Shown here piece by piece: positions 264 to 38,366 of a stretch of DNA of 64,000 bases. The notes beneath the pieces are model-generated. The model was not told the origin of the DNA. It was given only the letters and a program-made list of their open reading frames with translations, and did no database searches. Source of the DNA: a virus (Duplodnaviria > Caudoviricetes); the IMG/VR virus record IMGVR_UViG_3300018495_000076, positions 32,001 to 96,000 of that record. The stretch is one strand, 5' to 3'. Both the position numbers and the translations under genes were made by a program. Within the stretch, counting starts at the first letter, position 1. The number at the start of each line of letters is the position of its first letter.

Positions 264-296
264 ATATCTTTACCTCTTAAAATCGTCATTTTATTA

Positions 297-512
297 TTAA
301 AGTTCCGTCAAATCAAAATCTTCAAACTCTGCAATGGATTCTCCAAGTTCCAATGTCAGCCAACCACCTTTGACAAAATAACCTTTAACATCCATTCCAT
401 CCAATTCTTCTTCTGGAATATTATCGTCAATCTCAATTCCGTTTTTGTCAAAGATTTCAACCACATCTGCGGTCTTATATATATCTAATCTCTTAAATTC
501 TGCATAAGTCAT
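297..512 (-). CDS. hypothetical acidic phage protein
   Basis: ORF with GGAGGT SD. Confidence 0.75.
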   Translation of the reverse strand: MTYAEFKRLDIYKTADVVEIFDKNGIEIDDNIPEEELDGMDVKGYFVKGGWLTLELGESIAEFEDFDLTEL

Positions 513-17937: not shown

Positions 17938-18201
17938 TTAGTCTTCGTTGTGTTCTCTTTCTTGCAGTTCGTCCAAGATGTCGAGTGCCTTGTTACGGCA
18001 TTCACCTTTGCCTACCATAACAAGTTCTTTTTTTGCAGACTCATAAAAGCCTGCACGAGCAAGGTCATACCATGCATGACCCCATGTTCTGTGGGTGTTG
18101 CAAATGTCCCACAAGCAGTCCTTGAGGTGTTCTGTACCCCAATAACCACTGTCGGCCTTTCCCTTCACGTAACCTTTTACTCTTGCGGAAAGTCTTGCCA
18201 T
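17938..18201 (-). CDS. hypothetical early protein
   Basis: AAGGAGGT SD. Confidence 0.75.
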   Translation of the reverse strand: MARLSARVKGYVKGKADSGYWGTEHLKDCLWDICNTHRTWGHAWYDLARAGFYESAKKELVMVGKGECRNKALDILDELQEREHNED

Positions 18202-18352
18202 ATATATACCTCCTTGCCACGACCTTAACTGCCCAATCGAGTGGGTTCAGTGGTTTATGTGGCTGTGCTTTATATGACTTGTGTGCTTGTTTAAGCCCAC
18301 AATGAAGCCCTTGACCATTTGCACAGTCAAGAGCTCGATGTAGGTTTAAGCA

Positions 18353-18652
18353 TTACATGACGCGGCAAAGTGCATTGACACCGTTGTAAATCAAGCCGTC
18401 AATGCCGAGAAAATACTGTGTACCGTTCTTGTAGATGATGAACTTGTCAGGCTGACAAACAGAACCAAAGCCACACCATTCAATGCGACAATGTCTGCTT
18501 TTTGCAAGCTTGCACACTTTTGCGAACAATTCGTTGCATACAGCTTCTTGGGTACGCCAATTGCCATACATACGAACTTCATACAGTTCCTTGCAAAGTT
18601 CAATCATTTCGGTCGTTTTGTTGCCCATAAGAGCACGGATAGTTTTGTACAT
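18353..18652 (-). CDS. hypothetical early protein
   Basis: GGAGGT SD. Confidence 0.75.
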   Translation of the reverse strand: MYKTIRALMGNKTTEMIELCKELYEVRMYGNWRTQEAVCNELFAKVCKLAKSRHCRIEWCGFGSVCQPDKFIIYKNGTQYFLGIDGLIYNGVNALCRVM

Positions 18653-18693
18653 AAGTACCTCCGACAGTAGGTTGTCAGCCGTAAATTTTCACT

Positions 18694-18743
18694 GACAGTT
18701 TCGCTCTTGCTTGTCAGCGTCGGACTTTTACCGACGGACTGTC
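18694..18743 (-). ncRNA. type III hammerhead-like ribozyme with variant core CUGACAA
   Basis: GACAG-UC / CGUCGG UAAAAGU CCGACG / CUGACAA / GC AAGA GC / GAAA CUGUC. Confidence 0.65.
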
Positions 18744-18785
18744 GTCATAAAACGGCTACACAATTGTAGCCGTTGTAAGTTATGC

Positions 18786-19010
18786 TCAATTGATGACTTC
18801 GACCTTTTTGACGATTGTGTAAAAGCTTTCGTCATAATCAGCCGAACTAACATTACGGACAGTTCCGTAAGGGGTTGTAAATCTAAACCCTGTTGTGGTC
18901 AATTCAAACAGCCCCGTAACTCCGTGCTCATTGTTGGGTTTTGTGTTACCATACATGACAAACATTTTGCCATCGTAATTTTTGCGAACCAAATACCAAT
19001 AAAGTTTCAT
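18786..19010 (-). CDS. hypothetical early protein
   Basis: ORF with SD. Confidence 0.7.
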   Translation of the reverse strand: MKLYWYLVRKNYDGKMFVMYGNTKPNNEHGVTGLFELTTTGFRFTTPYGTVRNVSSADYDESFYTIVKKVEVIN

Positions 19011-19142
19011 AAATGACCTTTCTGCCCAAATGGACAATGCTCAATTTTTCTGCACGAGAGCTGGTGCAAATATTTAATGCCGTATGAGGGCTGGGATAGG
19101 GTTTGATTAACGGCTCAAACCCTTCAGAAAGCCGGTTACACA

Positions 19143-19310
19143 TTACACTTCCGTAACTTCAAAATCCATCGGCTCATCCACAATGCTTTGATGCGCCAAC
19201 GCCCATGCAATCAGTTTTTCGACTGCCTCGTCTTCGTCATGTGCCTCAACTACATGTGTGGTGCATTCGGGCATAGGTGCAAAACTCCAATAACCTCTAA
19301 ATCTTTTCAT
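19143..19310 (-). CDS. hypothetical early protein
   Basis: overlapping stop/start with the upstream gene, SD. Confidence 0.7.
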   Translation of the reverse strand: MKRFRGYWSFAPMPECTTHVVEAHDEDEAVEKLIAWALAHQSIVDEPMDFEVTEV

Positions 19311-19675
19311 GCTTGTACCTCCTTCAATTCCTTCTTTGCTTGTGCATATCTTGCTTCCCACTCTTTGCAGTAAGCAATTGTGTCTCGCAAATCTTGTGCC
19401 AATTCTGCGAGTTCGTCCGTGAAGTTTTCAGGTTCCCAGATTTCGGTGTCGAGCAATTTGCTCAGATCCCTATGTATACGAACACGAGTATCACGAGAAT
19501 TCATGATTGCCACGGTGTAGGCACACTTGAGGTGCATGAGTTCCTTTTCACGGCGGAGTTTGCCGTTGGGTGTGTCTTCAAGCACGAGTGCTTTGATGGC
19601 TTCACTTGCATAGAAGTAACATGTCGAAACTTCCAATTCCTCTGCCTTGCGAATTGCGTTCATAAATCTTTCCAT
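19307..19675 (-). CDS. hypothetical early protein
   Basis: AAGGAGG SD. Confidence 0.8.
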   Translation of the reverse strand: MERFMNAIRKAEELEVSTCYFYASEAIKALVLEDTPNGKLRREKELMHLKCAYTVAIMNSRDTRVRIHRDLSKLLDTEIWEPENFTDELAELAQDLRDTIAYCKEWEARYAQAKKELKEVQA

Positions 19676-19821
19676 AACTTCCTCCTTCTGCCCGGCTCTT
19701 TCGAGCGTATGGAATTGGGCTGTAAAATTTTAATTGCCTTGCGGCTGGTAGAGCCTCGTTTTCGGTCGTAGGCTCTTAGTACCGAGTGTTTTACGTGTTA
19801 TCGCCTCACTGCCAAGGGTTA

Positions 19822-20469
19822 TTAGCCGAGCATATCCTCGGTCAAGCCATAGGTTTCAACTGCCTTTTTCCACTTAGGGGACTTCAGCAGACCCTCTTTT
19901 GCCTTGGGCATGAAGTCTTTGAGTTCCTCAGCAGACTTGCCCAGAACAGTGAATGTGGTTGCCGCTCCTCCGTTAGCAATGCTGTATGCACTTGCTGCAC
20001 GGTTCAGCACGGACATTTTCATTTTGTCGAGTGCCTTCTGGGCGGAGGGAGTGAGTTCCACCTTGGTTGCTTTCACTTCCTTGACCTCGGTTGCCGCCTT
20101 TGTGGGTGCGTCATTTCCTTTGCCCTTACGAGCATTGGACTTCTTGCTTCCCTTTTCGGACTTGCCATTTCCCTTGCTGTCGGTCTTAGGCTTGCTTTCC
20201 TTCGCCTGCTTGCTTGCTTCCTCAGGCTTGGGCTTACGGTTTGCCTTGTACTCATCTTCGCTCACGGAAGTAATTGCCTGAGCAACGAACTTCTTGGCAA
20301 GAGCAACCTTAGGGAACTCGGCCTTGAATCCGCCTACACCCTTGAGCACTGTGCCACCAAGGCTTTCAACGATGGCTTTGTTGCGTACATACAGGTCATG
20401 TGCCACATAACGATCTGCGGTTACGATGGTCTTGTTCTGTGTGAAGTTGATAGGTGTAAAGTTTGTCAT
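19822..20469 (-). CDS. Lys/Ala-rich basic early protein
   Basis: SD; strongly biased codons; low-complexity basic linker. Confidence 0.85.
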   Translation of the reverse strand: MTNFTPINFTQNKTIVTADRYVAHDLYVRNKAIVESLGGTVLKGVGGFKAEFPKVALAKKFVAQAITSVSEDEYKANRKPKPEEASKQAKESKPKTDSKGNGKSEKGSKKSNARKGKGNDAPTKAATEVKEVKATKVELTPSAQKALDKMKMSVLNRAASAYSIANGGAATTFTVLGKSAEELKDFMPKAKEGLLKSPKWKKAVETYGLTEDMLG

Positions 20470-20545
20470 AATTAAACCTCCTTTGTGCCTTGTGCGCATA
20501 GGCTATGACATTGCGTGTACCTATGCAAGGCTATAATATTTTATT

Positions 20546-20612
20546 AGCCGTTAGCCGTGCTTATGCACGTTGCCCACCCTACACTATCGTGGAAGTCGGC
20601 TTGTTGTAGGGT
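20546..20612 (-). ncRNA. HDV-like ribozyme
   Basis: P1 ACCCUAC/GUAGGGU, P2 AGCCG/CGGCU, P3 ACU/AGU, L3 UCCACGAU, P1.1 CC/GG, P4 CGUGC-AUAA-GCACG, J4/2 GCUAA. Confidence 0.85.
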
Positions 20613-20613
20613 T

Positions 20614-20640
20614 AGGCAGTTTATACTCATACCCAGGAGT
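20614..20640 (-). ncRNA. 3'-UTR H-type pseudoknot, AUAAACUGC family copy 1
   Basis: ACUC-CUGGGUAU-GAGU-AUAAACU-GCCU. Confidence 0.65.
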
Positions 20641-20645
20641 GTGTG

Positions 20646-20933
20646 TTAACCAAGACAACGAACCATGCGTTTGAAGATGTCAATGTCCTTGAAGGACTTG
20701 ATGTAGCCACTATGGATGTAAGTATCGTTATCACGAATGGATACCCATAACACACCGTTTTTCATTCTGTCTACTACCACGATGATCTTGCGCTCGTCAT
20801 CTTGGCGCACACCAAAGAAGTCGAACCATAGACACTCTCCTTCACGCTTGAGTGTGCGTCTATCGTATGTGAAGTACCTATCCACATAAGATACGAGTTT
20901 ATTGGTGTTTGTTCTGGAAACTTTGAAAAACAT
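20646..20933 (-). CDS. hypothetical early protein
   Basis: AAGGAG SD. Confidence 0.75.
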   Translation of the reverse strand: MFFKVSRTNTNKLVSYVDRYFTYDRRTLKREGECLWFDFFGVRQDDERKIIVVVDRMKNGVLWVSIRDNDTYIHSGYIKSFKDIDIFKRMVRCLG

Positions 20934-20966
20934 AATCATTCTCCTTTTGCCTATTGGCGTTAATGT

Positions 20967-21013
20967 GGCAATTCGCATGCACCCTCGCCTCGTGAAGGCT
21001 TGCCCATGAGGGT
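20967..21013 (-). ncRNA. minimal HDV-like ribozyme lacking P4
   Basis: P1 ACCCUC/GAGGGU, P2 GGCAA/UUGCC, P3 GCC/GGC, L3 UUCACGA, J4/2 GCGAA. Confidence 0.8.
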
Positions 21014-21055
21014 ATCCATTTTTACGAGTTGGAATTTCAAGCTATCTCGTGTGTG

Positions 21056-21304
21056 CTATAAGTTAGCGCATAATTGGCAAAGCAACTTGTTGACATAGCC
21101 TTGTGGGTACAAGGTTAATGTGTATTTGTCCCTACAAGCACCAATCAGTTCCTCGACATCCATGTCGTCGAATGCCCACACAATCTCGTGATTGCGTGTA
21201 ATGATACCGTTAATTTCGTCGTATGCGTCTACCACATATGCGTCACCAAAGCACCAATATCTTGTGCCCCAATTGTAGTTGACTTTTGCTATTTGCTTGT
21301 ACAT
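21056..21304 (-). CDS. hypothetical early protein
   Basis: AAGGAG SD. Confidence 0.75.
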   Translation of the reverse strand: MYKQIAKVNYNWGTRYWCFGDAYVVDAYDEINGIITRNHEIVWAFDDMDVEELIGACRDKYTLTLYPQGYVNKLLCQLCANL

Positions 21305-21324
21305 AAATCATCTCTCCTTTGCAA

Positions 21325-21377
21325 TCCGTTTCGGCTCATGCCATCATCGGCTCATGGACTTTTACCACGAGGACGGA
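21325..21377 (-). ncRNA. type III hammerhead ribozyme (core CCGAUGA)
   Basis: UCCG-UC / CUCGUGG UAAAAGU CCAUGAG / CCGAUGA-U / GGC AUGA GCC / GAAA CGGA. Confidence 0.8.
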
Positions 21378-21404
21378 AGGCAGTTTATGCTCGTGCCTGG
21401 GAGC
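21378..21404 (-). ncRNA. 3'-UTR H-type pseudoknot, AUAAACUGC family copy 2
   Basis: GCUC-CCAGGCAC-GAGC-AUAAACU-GCCU. Confidence 0.7.
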
Positions 21405-21411
21405 GTAGGTG

Positions 21412-21729
21412 TTAGTGTGACACATGTGTGATAGTGTCGTCGGTAACATCGAATGTGTACTGCGTATCAAAGTACACGGTTACGAGTGTGCCGTTGTCAA
21501 GATTGGTGGTGTAGTCCCAAATGTGTCCATCAGCAGTGATTATTGTGCCGTCTTCGTAGTATGTGCCCTCTTGAGTGCGTTCGCCCATAAGCACACACCA
21601 ACAGTTCCAATCAGCATAGATGGGATTGTGGCGAGTGTTTTTGCATACCACCTCGATGGTGCTTACGAGCATCCATGCGAGGACGAGCACGAATACGAGT
21701 GTGAATGCGTTGCTGATAAATTTTTTCAT
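21412..21729 (-). CDS. membrane-anchored hypothetical protein
   Basis: N-terminal hydrophobic helix FTLVFVLVLAWMLV. Confidence 0.8.
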   Translation of the reverse strand: MKKFISNAFTLVFVLVLAWMLVSTIEVVCKNTRHNPIYADWNCWCVLMGERTQEGTYYEDGTIITADGHIWDYTTNLDNGTLVTVYFDTQYTFDVTDDTITHVSH

Positions 21730-21782
21730 GGTTTTTCTCCTTTGCCCACTCACGAAATGGGACTTGTGAATTTTGTTTTAGG

Positions 21783-21850
21783 CGTGACTTCGGATGCATA
21801 AGCACCCAAACGCACTTGGCTTAACACGGTTTAGCCTCCCCAAGTGGAGG
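21783..21850 (-). ncRNA. pistol ribozyme
   Basis: P1 CCUCC-ACUUGG-GGAGG, CUAAAC, P2 CGUG, UUAAG, pseudoknot CCAAGU, GCG, P3 UUUGGGUGC-UUAU-GCAUCCGAA, G/U cleavage site, CACG. Confidence 0.9.
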
Positions 21851-21877
21851 GAGCAGTTTATGCACTTGCTCAGGTGC
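21851..21877 (-). ncRNA. 3'-UTR H-type pseudoknot, AUAAACUGC family copy 3
   Basis: GCAC-CUGAGCAA-GUGC-AUAAACU-GCUC. Confidence 0.7.
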
Positions 21878-21884
21878 ATGGGTG

Positions 21885-22409
21885 TTAGCGAACACTCTCC
21901 CAGTATGTCCAACCTTCAGAGCCAATCTGTGCAGACATGTTGTGCTTGCGAAGGACGGAAGCAACTGCCTTATTGGCTTCTCTGCCTTTGCCTGCATAGG
22001 TATCAATCCCAATCTGCCACTCAGCCTTGGTAGGCTTGGGATCACCCTTGCCAGCGGGTCTGCGAGCACGAAGCTTTGCCTTAGGCTTTTCTGCTTTGGG
22101 TTGTTCATCGGTTTCACTCTTGGGTGCCTCTGTGTGCATAGGGTAAAGCAATCCATCACTGTCGAAATGCCCAATGGCAGTCCACTGGAAGGTCTTCTCC
22201 TTCGTGCATTCGAGAGCGCAAAGCGTGTTCTCGTACTTTACGAGATTCCACAAAGCAACCTTGTTGGCATCCTTGCCACCTTTGATGGTGCTTGTTATGC
22301 ACACACATGTCTGGGTGTAGTATGCTTCGTTTGTGAAGCGAACTGCACCTGCTTTTTCTGCGGCTGTGTATGCGCCTGCGAGTGTCTTGTAAGTCTTGTT
22401 GGTTTTCAT
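21885..22409 (-). CDS. basic early protein; C-terminal domain paralogous to 22573..23085
   Basis: AGKGREANK...WTYWESVR. Confidence 0.85.
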   Translation of the reverse strand: MKTNKTYKTLAGAYTAAEKAGAVRFTNEAYYTQTCVCITSTIKGGKDANKVALWNLVKYENTLCALECTKEKTFQWTAIGHFDSDGLLYPMHTEAPKSETDEQPKAEKPKAKLRARRPAGKGDPKPTKAEWQIGIDTYAGKGREANKAVASVLRKHNMSAQIGSEGWTYWESVR

Positions 22410-22473
22410 AGTACCTCCTTTGCCCATATGGGCGTGCTCGGTTTATGCACATGAACTGGTGCGTGAATTTTGT

Positions 22474-22543
22474 GTCCCGCTCTGCCTTGACAAGACGAAG
22501 TCTTGCCTCACGGACTTGCGACCGTCGTTGGTGGCATTAAGAC
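22474..22543 (-). ncRNA. twister ribozyme (type P1, with P5)
   Basis: GUCU-UAA-UGCC-AC...ACGG-UCGCAAGU-CCGU...P5...AA-GGCA-GAGCG-GGAC; both pseudoknots (AC/GU, CGC/GCG) are complementary. Confidence 0.88.
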
Positions 22544-22572
22544 GCCCCCACCCGAAGGTGAGGGCATGTGTG

Positions 22573-23085
22573 TTAGCGAATGGACTTCCAATAGTCCCAC
22601 TCTGCACCGTTGGGTTCAATGCCGAACTCGCGGATGATTGCGGCTGCCTGCTTGTTCGCGCTCTTGCCCTTGCCTGCGAGCTTGTCGAGTTTTTTCAGCA
22701 ACTTGGCATTGCCCTTGCCGTTTGTGCGCTTGGGTGCGTTCACGGGCATGAGCACGCAGCCGTCGCCGTTAGCCGTGCCTTGAATCGTGTATTCCTTGCC
22801 GTCCATCAAGTCCTCGTACTCACGAGCGGGATCGTATGCCTCGGCGCGCTCGGACTTGGGCACATACGCTGCGTGAGCCTCGGCATAGTCTGCTCTGAAC
22901 TTTTTTGCTACGGATTCTGCCGTTTTGACGGAGTCAAATGTTACGGCTACGAAGCCTTCGGCAGTTTTGGCGATTTCGGTGTTGTGGTCTTGGGCGAGCT
23001 GCACGAGCGCCTTGTATGCGCCGTACGGCAGGTACGCGGTTGCGGTAAGGGTGTTCTGGGTTCTCTTAATCAAATTCTTAGACAT
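22573..23085 (-). CDS. first gene of leftward early operon, basic protein
   Basis: AAGGAGG SD; AGKGKSANK...WDYWKSIR C-terminus. Confidence 0.85.
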   Translation of the reverse strand: MSKNLIKRTQNTLTATAYLPYGAYKALVQLAQDHNTEIAKTAEGFVAVTFDSVKTAESVAKKFRADYAEAHAAYVPKSERAEAYDPAREYEDLMDGKEYTIQGTANGDGCVLMPVNAPKRTNGKGNAKLLKKLDKLAGKGKSANKQAAAIIREFGIEPNGAEWDYWKSIR

Positions 23086-23175
23086 AAATGCCTCCTTCTG
23101 CGTGGATCACACGCTCATATATTGCGTATGTGCTATACACATACACTCACCAAGGGTATCCCTCGGAAATCTATG

Positions 23176-23203
23176 ACCATATCATACTCCATGCCTTATG
23201 CAA
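23176..23203 (-). promoter_or_regulatory. probable sigmaA-type promoter of the leftward operon
   Basis: TTGCAT-16-TATGGT with TGn extension and AT-rich UP region. Confidence 0.5.
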
Positions 23204-23911
23204 TAAAATTCTGAAAACTCATATTTTCTGTACTTTTTGAAAAAAATCACTGGGGGTAGATAAAACCACGACTTTTGAGTGCTTTTTGCTTTATTATGGA
23301 ACGAGGTCTACTTCTACACTGACTTCAAAATGTACGAAAAATATTTTCCAAAATCACACTCTCCAGCCCTAATAAATTACACCAATCCACTCCAACTTTA
23401 CCACCTTAAAACCACACCAAAATCACCATAGCCCATACCACAAAACAGTCTGGGCAAGATAATTTTTCTCCAAATAGCCACCTAATCCCGCAACTTATCA
23501 ATCAATACACCACTTCTCAAACACCTCACCTCTTTAAACTACAAGAAAAACCCTTATTATTTCCCCTAACCCCCATGTCATAAAACAAAATCGTCTTCCT
23601 GGCAACAAATTCCCACTATAACAATCGTTTTCAAAAATCACTCAACAAAAACAACAACATACCACACAAAACCACATATAATACAACATTTTCCTATATA
23701 CAACTCTTCCTGATCTCACAATCCTTAAAACCACCAATTTTCAGCCATCATAACCACTTCTCACAAGCAAAAACCCACTATAATCAATTAAAATAGGGGG
23801 TATCATTAAACTGCACACATATAACAACCCCATAATGTGATACAAAACCACACATATACAAAAAATATTTTCCATGATTGTTAAAAATATGTAAACATTG
23901 CTACACATCTA

Positions 23912-23960
23912 TTTACAATTCATTTAAATTAGTTTATACTATTTACAGTACAAAATGATT
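23912..23960 (+). promoter_or_regulatory. sigmaA-type promoter plus downstream TACAAAATGATT box
   Basis: TTTACA-17-TATACT, box 8 nt after the -10. Confidence 0.65.
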
Positions 23961-23977
23961 CATAAGGAGATACACAC

Positions 23978-24376
23978 ATGCCAAAAAACAAAATTCAAAC
24001 CTATGTACCCGGCAAAGGAGTATTAGATATTCAAGTTGCTGCCAACCAAAAAGTAATTGAGATCCACAAGGTCAACCCCAAAGGCAAATTCATCTTAGAC
24101 ATTGAAGCCAACAAGCAAGCAATGCAATCACTATCACCTCAAGCCTATATGCTCTATATGCATTTCATCTTAAATATCCCCGGCTACAAAGAAGCATTAA
24201 GTCTCAAGAACATTACAGAAACAACATCTCTTACAGAACGTACCTACTATAAAGCCGTTAACGAGCTTATAGAAAAAAAATATCTCGTCAAAGAAGACCA
24301 CTTAGACTTCTCTGACTATTATGGCTTTTACGAGAACCCTTTCAAGGGGTGCGACGAAGTCGAATCCCTAGTTTGA
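23978..24376 (+). CDS. winged-helix DNA-binding protein (replication-initiator-like)
   Basis: LSLKNITETTSLTERTYYKAVNELIEKKYL wHTH pattern; followed by AT tract and 24-bp repeats. Confidence 0.6.
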   Translation: MPKNKIQTYVPGKGVLDIQVAANQKVIEIHKVNPKGKFILDIEANKQAMQSLSPQAYMLYMHFILNIPGYKEALSLKNITETTSLTERTYYKAVNELIEKKYLVKEDHLDFSDYYGFYENPFKGCDEVESLV

Positions 24377-37508: not shown

Positions 37509-37583
37509 GGTCGGTTAGTGAAGTGGTTAACTCACAAGATTTTCATTCTTGTAGCACGAGTTCGAATCTCGTACCGACTACCA
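37509..37583 (+). tRNA. tRNA-Glu(TTC)
   Basis: cloverleaf; anticodon arm CAAGA-TTTTCAT-TCTTG; encoded CCA. Confidence 0.85.
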
Positions 37584-37586
37584 CAT

Positions 37587-37662
37587 GACACCATAGCTCA
37601 GTTGGTAGAGCAGCAGACTGTTAATCTGCGGGTCGTAGGTTCAAGCCCTACTGGTGTCGCCA
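37587..37662 (+). tRNA. tRNA-Asn(GTT)
   Basis: cloverleaf; loop CTGTTAA; CCA. Confidence 0.93.
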
Positions 37663-37666
37663 TTAT

Positions 37667-37742
37667 GGGGGTGTAGCTCAGTTGGGAGAGCACCTGCCCT
37701 GCAAGCAGGGGGTCAAGGGTTCGAATCCCTTCATCTCCACCA
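37667..37742 (+). tRNA. tRNA-Ala(TGC)
   Basis: cloverleaf; loop CCTGCAA; G3-U70; CCA. Confidence 0.93.
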
Positions 37743-37882
37743 TCGGGTAGATAAGATAACAAAATGCGCCACTACCTACAACATATTGGACAAGACGGTA
37801 GCCATCGTACTTAGTGCGGGGTCGTTAGTCGGTATGGTATCAAATTGGCAGATGTGTGGTTGACGGTACCTAACCGTTATTT

Positions 37883-37959
37883 GGCCCGGTAGTTCAGTTG
37901 GTTAGAACGCTAGCCTGTCACGCTAGAGGTCGTGGGTTCGAGTCCCATCCGGGTCGCCA
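37883..37959 (+). tRNA. tRNA-Asp(GTC)
   Basis: cloverleaf; loop CTGTCAC; CCA. Confidence 0.93.
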
Positions 37960-38011
37960 AGCAGTTTTTAGTAGGTTTCTGCTGCCACAGCTAAATAAAC
38001 TTACATTTTAT

Positions 38012-38096
38012 GGGAGAGTAGTAAATCGGCAACTACACGGGACTGTAAATCCCGCACCTTCGGGTACAGTGGGGTCGGCACCCACCTCTCCCACCA
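38012..38096 (+). tRNA. tRNA-Tyr(GTA)
   Basis: loop CTGTAAA, long variable arm, atypical T-loop; CCA. Confidence 0.85.
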
Positions 38097-38100
38097 ACAA

Positions 38101-38200
38101 AAGACACATACAGCAACTTTATCTGGTTGTCAAGCGGTTAAGACATTTCTCTCGAAAAGAAATAACACGGGTTCAAATCCCGTCCTACATAATGTGTCTT
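38101..38200 (+). ncRNA. tRNA-like RNA: D, anticodon (CGA) and T arms closed by a non-acceptor 9-bp stem (skipping-rope-like)
   Basis: AAGACACAT-ACAGCAA...ATGTGTCTT outer stem; no acceptor stem or CCA. Confidence 0.65.
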
Positions 38201-38207
38201 GTTTGAT

Positions 38208-38282
38208 GCTGGCGTAGCACAACGGTAGTGCCCCTCACTTGTAATGAGGATGTTGTAGGTTCGAATCCTATCGCCAGCTCCA
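38208..38282 (+). tRNA. tRNA-Thr(TGT)
   Basis: cloverleaf; loop CTTGTAA; CCA. Confidence 0.9.
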
Positions 38283-38288
38283 ATATAT

Positions 38289-38366
38289 TGCGGGGTAGAG
38301 CAGTCAGGTAGCTCGTTAGGCTCATAACCTAAAAGTCGGTGGTTCAAATCCACCCCTTCGCAACCA
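38289..38366 (+). tRNA. tRNA-Met(CAT), initiator-like body
   Basis: fMet-like D arm and T-loop; loop CTCATAA; one extra base on the 3' acceptor strand. Confidence 0.85.

Follow-up and report, generated by a model that had tools for sequence, protein, structure and literature searches.

The DNA analysed here, referred to below as the window, is a stretch of 64,000 nucleotides (nt) covering bases 32001–96000 of a virus record that is 174,761 bp long and has direct terminal repeats (IMG/VR record IMGVR_UViG_3300018495_000076, Caudoviricetes). It contains an operon whose intergenic spacers bear pistol, hepatitis delta virus (HDV)-like, hammerhead-like and twister-like ribozymes alongside copies of a 27-nt H-type pseudoknot, which is the subject of this analysis. 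The pseudoknot-bearing genes are on the minus strand; they follow an AT-rich promoter-like gap near 23,250 and continue as small open reading frames (ORFs) to below 17,000. The ribozyme-rich operon (window positions 18,000–24,000) has a G+C content of 45–47% versus 33–38% elsewhere in the window. Its junctions repeat one layout: a stop codon is followed after 5–12 nt by a compact structure, then by a ribozyme, a spacer and a ribosome binding site (Table 1). Clusters of self-cleaving ribozymes are found in phage operons, where a review (PMC6765202) describes their role as open.

The original prediction, made from the letters of the window, listed three such pseudoknots, each beginning 5–7 nt after a stop codon and abutting a ribozyme. 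All three were recovered exactly where they had been placed, on the minus strand and with both stems fully paired, and copies 1–3 start 5, 7 and 7 nt past UAA codons (20648–20646, 21414–21412 and 21887–21885, respectively). The count of three proved too low: there is a fourth perfect copy as well as a variant with the same layout and a longer A-rich linker. Copy 4 is separated by 11 nt from the twister-like ribozyme on its upstream side and by 26 nt from the downstream ATG at 22409, and the variant lies 75 nt past a stop and 28 nt upstream of the ATG at 19010. Adjacency to ribozymes is close, with a 0-nt gap between copy 3 and the pistol ribozyme and 1 nt between the end of copy 1 and P1 of the HDV-like ribozyme, but the pistol is the only ribozyme in the window that scores above its Rfam gathering threshold. 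The hammerhead behind copy 2 was recognized by eye; it has a C where the core has a U (core position 4), and Rfam does not call it. Copy 2 is followed directly by UCCGUC and ends 6 nt ahead of the predicted hammerhead cut. A different pseudoknot said to fill the same role at another junction can be drawn as described and does occupy the same slot, ahead of an HDV-like candidate, but it comes from one sequence. At a further junction a UUCG hairpin abuts the twister-like ribozyme, in the slot that the pseudoknot holds elsewhere.

Table 1. Genes and RNA features of the ribozyme-rich operon (window coordinates)
Feature	Position	Strand	Description
Pseudoknot copy 1	20614..20640	-	ACUC CU GGGU AU GAGU AUAAACU GCCU; both stems 4/4 paired
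Pseudoknot copy 2	21378..21404	-	GCUC CC AGGC AC GAGC AUAAACU GCCU; both stems 4/4 paired
Pseudoknot copy 3	21851..21877	-	GCAC CU GAGC AA GUGC AUAAACU GCUC; both stems 4/4 paired
Pseudoknot copy 4	22436..22462	-	GCAC CA GUUC AU GUGC AUAAACC GAGC; both stems perfect
Variant knot	19039..19067	-	GCAC CA GCUC UC GUGC AGAAAAAUU GAGC; same layout, longer A-rich linker; candidate, single sequence
Alternative pseudoknot	21015..21050	-	ACGAG/CUCGU and UCCA/UGGA, linker AAAAA; single sequence
UUCG hairpin	22544..22565	-	9 bp, -17.5 kcal/mol; starts 7 nt past UAA at 22575-22573
Twister-P1-like ribozyme	22474..22543	-	Rfam 33.2 bits, below gathering score 67.2
Pistol ribozyme (RF02679)	21783..21850	-	Rfam 38.5 bits, above gathering score 34.5
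Type III hammerhead-like element	21325..21377	-	By eye: UCCGUC / stem I / CCGAUGA / stem II / GAAACGGA
HDV-like ribozyme (RF02682)	20544..20612	-	Rfam 36.8 bits, below gathering score 44
Six small genes	22573-23085, 21885-22409, 21412-21729, 21056-21304, 20646-20939, 19822-20469	-	No known family; structured spacers between

The copies in the window are far more numerous than chance would give. Both stems are fully paired at 4 of the 66 ATAAAC sites (~0.03 expected, 0.375^8), and the pattern CCNNNNNANGNNNATAAAC has 5 matches versus 0.09 expected, a number reached in none of 100 shuffles (≥5 matches). A scan with relaxed loops over the whole 174,761-bp genome returned the four copies only. Scanning for generic pseudoknots of any sequence was too permissive to be of use.

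The element is not confined to this virus. A pattern with one stem-1 variant fixed hit 44 viral loci, where stem 2 was fully paired in 12 (~1 expected), and a pattern made up of the conserved bases only matched at least 119 viral and at least 120 genome stretches. The counts that follow refer to 255 matches and to sets of 177, 150, 145 and 83 drawn from them, that is, they hold among the matches listed. Both stems pair 4/4 in 138 of the 255 and a further 48 pair 3/4 and 4/4, while full pairing at the five free pairs has a chance of less than 1%. For an alignment of 150 distinct sequences, which takes in chance matches, the structure ((((..[[[[[.))))......]]]]] leaves 86.1% of cells paired (71.3% in shuffles) and yields a covariation score of 0.371 versus 0.141, which none of 500 shuffles reached. 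The early claim that both helices covary is thereby confirmed. Slid controls were paired in 22–36% of cells, and the weakest pair, unpaired in 61 of the 150 sequences, is the outermost of stem 1. The motif thus consists of a 4-bp stem 1 closed by C-G, a loop 1 reading CU, a 5-bp stem 2, a 1-nt junction between the stems and a loop 3 reading NNAAAC (consensus NNNC CU NNGC A W GNNN NN AAAC U GCNN). This corrects the first description on two points: stem 2, whose covarying pairs had been drawn as 4 bp, gains a fifth from loop 2 A and linker U (149 of 150 aligned sequences), and the AUAAACU linker, invariant in the three copies first noted, reads NNAAAC-U outside the window.

The loops are conserved in their own right, since a scan with stems fixed and loops free still returns CU, A-W and NNAAAC-U. 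Over 101 contexts, loop 1 is CU in 96, loop 2 is AU or AA in 97, and the linker is NNAAACU in 84 with near variants in 13, its first two bases being variable. The near-invariant bases (C5, U6, A21 and C22) and the fixed pairs (C4-G13 and A11-U23) cluster at the helical junction.

Fully paired copies were found in contigs labelled Saccharibacteria, other Patescibacteria, Bacillota, Bacteroidota, Pseudomonadota, Planctomycetota and Cyanobacteria, and a few in contigs labelled archaeal. Binned contigs may be phages, and the hosts are therefore uncertain. Among cultured phages, Roseophage SIO1, Celeribacter P12053L and Lentibacter ICBM1-3 have the motif, as does a Clostridium tetani prophage; the SIO1 copy starts 9 nt past a ribonucleotide reductase stop and has the linker CUAAAC. 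The E. coli genomes scanned had no match, and the plasmids scanned gave 10 weak ones. In Escherichia phage flopper (Carltongylesvirus, E. coli K-12; locus L286, ~600–1740), a noncoding stretch longer than 1 kb and located ahead of a tRNA includes a motif-like copy in which stem 1 has one mismatch; if real, this copy would offer a tractable host. One canonical copy is present in a related 169-kb phage (G001), 9 nt past a stop and directly ahead of an HDV-like candidate, which by eye resembles the one behind the alternative knot of the window. L049 shows this arrangement as well.

We next consider where the motif stands relative to genes. An upstream ORF on the same strand ends within 120 nt of 145 of the 177 well-paired non-redundant copies, and none of these 145 starts 0–4 nt past the stop. 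From 5 nt on, the starts are distributed as 24 at 5 nt, 17 at 6, 10 at 7, 11 at 8, 8 at 9 and 5 at 10, which makes 75 of the 145; overlap with the motif was seen for three ORFs. For the 83 copies at 5–12 nt the stop is TAA in 55, TAG in 20 and TGA in 8, and the spacers are not conserved. The ribosomal helicase acts ~11 nt from the P site, which corresponds to the stop codon plus 5 nt. A start at least 5 nt past the stop would thus place the knot just outside the footprint of a terminating ribosome, and the hard limit of 5 nt, equal to the reach of a ribosome with the stop codon in the A site, suggests a placement such that translation never opens the knot.

The same limit can be read in another way. 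A knot at the mRNA entry channel of a ribosome whose A site holds the stop codon might itself be a signal to that ribosome, tuning release or blocking post-termination sliding and re-initiation and so uncoupling the cistrons. The hard lower limit, the concentration of copies at 5–10 nt, which is the spacing of recoding pseudoknots, and an architecture like that of compact polerovirus frameshift knots are in keeping with such an action. We nevertheless regard it as improbable, as the distances peak at the limit and then decay, a profile that looks like "as close as allowed" and not like an optimum. Moreover, inspection of the 83 junctions by eye revealed no recurrent slippery heptamer before the stops, where the preceding bases vary; read-through in the window would add few residues before the next stop; and copies in 5′ untranslated regions (UTRs) have no upstream ribosome to address.

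These 5′-UTR copies form a second class. Sixteen copies lie 50–98 nt past the previous stop and 17–30 nt ahead of a start codon, that is, in a true 5′ UTR, and several of them have TATAAT or TTGACA boxes upstream. Generally, the next start codon follows at widely varying distances (11–39 nt, with peaks at 18–20 and 28–30). Same-strand tRNAs occur downstream of nine copies (at 3, 4, 5, 6, 6, 11, 66, 80 and 119 nt) and upstream of none. Behind the 83 stop-proximal copies we found a same-strand ORF in 44 cases, a convergent ORF in 16, no ORF within 300 nt in 13 and a nearby contig end in 10; in 16 of the 73 evaluable cases, then, the motif follows the last gene ahead of a convergent one. An A comes directly after the knot in 55% of copies, and the next 8 nt are poor in G (4–11%).

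Several of these features would also be expected of a folding insulator, a knot that locks the bases upstream of a ribozyme, a tRNA or a ribosome binding site against mispairing or disturbance. Such a role would be comparable to that of the hairpin in the synthetic RiboJ insulator. The knots lie 0–1 nt from the 5′ edges of ribozymes, including a pistol that cuts far downstream, and 3–11 nt ahead of tRNAs; 12 of the 16 5′-UTR copies end 17–20 nt ahead of the start codon, and the depletion of G past the knot fits as well. What makes us doubt this explanation is that nothing is left to insulate at the 16 of 73 copies followed by a convergent ORF only or at the 13 with no ORF within 300 nt, and that a simple hairpin would serve equally well, leaving the deep conservation of the loops unexplained.

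Two classical elements were considered for the same positions and rejected. An intrinsic (Rho-independent) terminator calls for a U run, and only 14 of the 177 copies, and none of the four in the window, have six or more U among the 8 nt that follow the knot. A promoter reading was prompted by TTGACA 18 nt before the motif's TATAAA at four loci, but the TGA inside this box is the stop codon of the long upstream ORF, 5 nt before the motif. In four Patescibacteria-labelled contigs (L221, L239, L277 and L279) a U run follows the knot immediately, and there the knot might replace a terminator hairpin.

The genes next to the motif are diverse. The upstream proteins covered, 81 of 82, include DUF932 (8), ribonucleotide reductase (6), DUF7249 (4) and HSP20, SpoVG and DUF3768 (2 each), and 48 have no family; the downstream proteins covered, 47 of 66, include Zn_ribbon_8 (5) and Toprim (2), the rest belonging to mixed families. 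This neighbourhood is not a coherent riboswitch gene set. It weakens the case for a binding site of a conserved partner, be it a ribosomal or decay protein or a small ligand, with the knot acting as an operator or in a riboswitch-like manner. The cluster of near-invariant unpaired bases at the helical junction would suit a partner, and so would the layout, which we take to resemble that of the preQ1-I aptamer. Yet no family prevails among the neighbours (DUF932 in 8 of 81 upstream, Zn_ribbon_8 in 5 of 47 downstream), no expression platform is visible (the Shine-Dalgarno sequence is outside stem 2, and U runs are limited to the 14 of 177), the PreQ1 model gives no match at E up to 10, and labels from many phyla argue against a lineage-specific protein. 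We therefore rate this possibility as quite improbable.

Taken together, we tentatively favour, with a probability of roughly 40%, the view that the motif acts as a compact roadblock where cistrons meet and ends up as the protective 3′ terminus of the upstream mRNA. It is preferred because the knot precedes cuts, swaps with a hairpin and occurs at operon ends. To the structure, conservation and placement rules observed above, this adds triplex contacts within the knot and a block to nucleases, both of which we infer. The knot would sit as near the stop codon as a terminating ribosome permits, and upstream translation would never open it. Cleavage of the RNA just downstream would then leave the knot with a tail of ~0–11 nt as the 3′ end of the upstream mRNA. 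An HDV-like, hammerhead-like or pistol ribozyme would do the cutting in the window, whereas at other loci RNase P acting at a tRNA, or ordinary decay, would be responsible. Placed at the 3′ end, the knot may halt 3′-to-5′ exonucleases short of the stop codon, and knots in 5′ UTRs may shield the ribosome binding site from events arriving from upstream. The distance from the knot to the predicted cut is ~0–6 nt at HDV-like and hammerhead-type ribozymes and 3–11 nt at six of the nine tRNAs. A single-stranded 3′ tail of several nt is needed by RNase R and RNase II. Engineered pseudoknots provide a precedent: evopreQ1 and mpknot on the 3′ ends of prime editing guide RNAs protect them from exonucleases, as stated in PMC13042712.

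A number of observations weigh against a 3′-end guard. The original prediction of 3′-exonuclease barriers agrees with the placement after stops and before cuts, but it leaves the 16 true 5′-UTR copies unexplained; these, and likewise copy 4 and the variant, which also lie in 5′ UTRs, have no upstream cistron in need of a cap. A second role is needed for the 5′-UTR class, in which the knot would either insulate or block events that come from the 5′ side. The stems are of modest stability (nearest-neighbour energies of -2 to -5 and -0.6 to -4.3 kcal/mol versus -17.5 for the UUCG hairpin), and since a plain hairpin would be stronger, the strict conservation of the loops may reflect recognition by a partner. 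Where the knot abuts the pistol, the cut falls ~60 nt downstream of the knot. An E-value-based Rfam scan of 15 further motif loci gave one hammerhead-like match, ~720 nt away, and this sole distant match implies that adjacency to ribozymes is special to the present phage group; a scan of 17 motif loci at gathering scores detected tRNAs only. Finally, frameshift pseudoknots did not stall the 5′-to-3′ exonuclease Xrn1, according to PMC10321173.

Searches of ten operon proteins against Pfam and PHROGs returned nothing informative, no relatives of two operon proteins were found in viral contigs, and the operon (3.4 kb) had no match among cultured phages. The strand switch near 23,250–24,000 marks the end of the ribozyme-rich operon. 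On the minus strand between 20,470 and 23,090, CUAACAC surrounds the stop codon at three junctions and GGCA(A/G)AAGGAG precedes several start codons; such common short contexts suggest that the junctions were assembled from repeated modules. Four further long structured spacers belong to the same operon (19821–19676, 19142–19011, 18785–18653 and 18352–18202, minus strand). None of these four matched Rfam at E up to 5, the spacers at 17–20 kb returned only two weak, unrelated matches, and one of the four spacers has a hairpin followed by a hammerhead-like element with a non-canonical core (18743–18694). The motif-bearing operon of the related phage G001 (L292) likewise has several candidate RNAs: a RAGATH-16-like match in a long leader (279–350, plus strand; 48 bits, below the gathering score of 65.6), a canonical hammerhead (~1755–1810, by eye) and an HDV-like match (2128–2200). 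Elsewhere in the window, on the plus strand, an abiF RNA motif (RF03085; 38374–38410, 39.6 bits, gathering score 37) directly follows an array of seven tRNAs (37509–38366; Glu, Asn, Ala, Asp, Tyr, Thr and Met), none of which is a suppressor.

A 27-nt pseudoknot with a loop sequence conserved over hundreds of contigs, covered by no Rfam family, would matter under any of these explanations. As a guard of mRNA ends, it would explain how ribozyme-cut phage messages survive and would provide a natural, very short RNA-stabilizing part. Action on the ribosome or binding of a factor would make it a new kind of signal; in the former case it would set the expression ratio of neighbouring phage genes and, in phages of many host phyla, be for stop codons what viral pseudoknots are for recoding.

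We compared the motif with known RNA families and systems. Rfam at E up to 10 gave no family match for 39 nt around copy 3 or for 81 nt around the copy of contig L054; in this search, which had been proposed as a check on the first reading, the motif was not assigned to any known element. No description of it was found in the literature searched, including text from PMC5737381, PMC10690425 and PMC10085705, the supplements of the 224-motif and 10,006-motif surveys being outside that search, and these supplements may list it under a code name. The motif is apparently an undescribed, widespread phage RNA element.

In layout the motif is like the 5′ domain of the pistol ribozyme (RF02679). Both have a 4-bp P1 closed by C-G, an 8-nt pseudoknot-forming loop and a 7-nt A-rich linker that begins (A/C)UAAA, and both occupy intergenic niches of phages, with one pistol directly after copy 3. 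Such resemblance raises the thought that the motif is either a pistol relative reduced to a minimal self-cleaver or what decay has left of a pistol, the more so as these niches are the same as those of self-cleaving ribozymes and the motif follows DUF932, DUF3768, DUF2958 and SpoVG genes, which we take to be ribozyme-associated. However, the motif is without P2, P3, the G-U cleavage site and the conserved core 3′ of the knot; its pseudoknot partner comes directly after the linker and its flanks are not conserved. The pistol and PreQ1 models likewise gave no match in a cmscan of copy 3 and the L054 copy at E up to 10. Complete ribozymes stand beside the motif in the window, so that a second cleaver would be redundant, and hundreds of intact covarying copies argue against decay. 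A catalytic or relic origin is accordingly very improbable.

The -1 frameshift knots of poleroviruses (beet western yellows virus, BWYV; potato leafroll virus, PLRV; sugarcane yellow leaf virus, ScYLV) are, like the motif, small H-type knots with a short first loop and nearly continuous stems, in which the A-rich last loop lends itself to minor-groove triples with stem 1, and they are placed 5–9 nt downstream of the decoding-site codon. General features of compact frameshift knots are given in PMC5009743. The motif differs from them in lying after a stop codon, in lacking a slippery heptamer and any evident overlapping frame, and in occurring in DNA phages and bacterial contigs.

With the preQ1-I aptamer and its derivative evopreQ1 the motif shares a minimal H-type pseudoknot with an A-rich tail. 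The hallmarks of preQ1-I (RF00522) are a ligand-pairing C before the 3′ strand of P1 and a P2 that overlaps the Shine-Dalgarno sequence or a terminator. In the motif, by contrast, 97 of 101 contexts have U or A at the junction, the Shine-Dalgarno sequence is downstream of the knot and outside stem 2, and the genes are not queuosine-related.

In terms of position, the nearest counterparts are the repetitive extragenic palindromic (REP) hairpins of E. coli operons and the 3′ hairpins that RNase III leaves on T7 early mRNAs, which likewise stand between a cistron and a processing site downstream of it and are expected to shield the upstream RNA from 3′ exonucleases. The motif is distinguished from them by being a sequence-conserved pseudoknot, by a processing that would be due to self-cleaving ribozymes or RNase P, and by its presence in contigs labelled with many phyla. 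Except for the 16 5′-UTR copies, it is found where a 3′ stabilizer should be, at the 3′ side of a cistron, with a cleavage site or a transcript end farther downstream.

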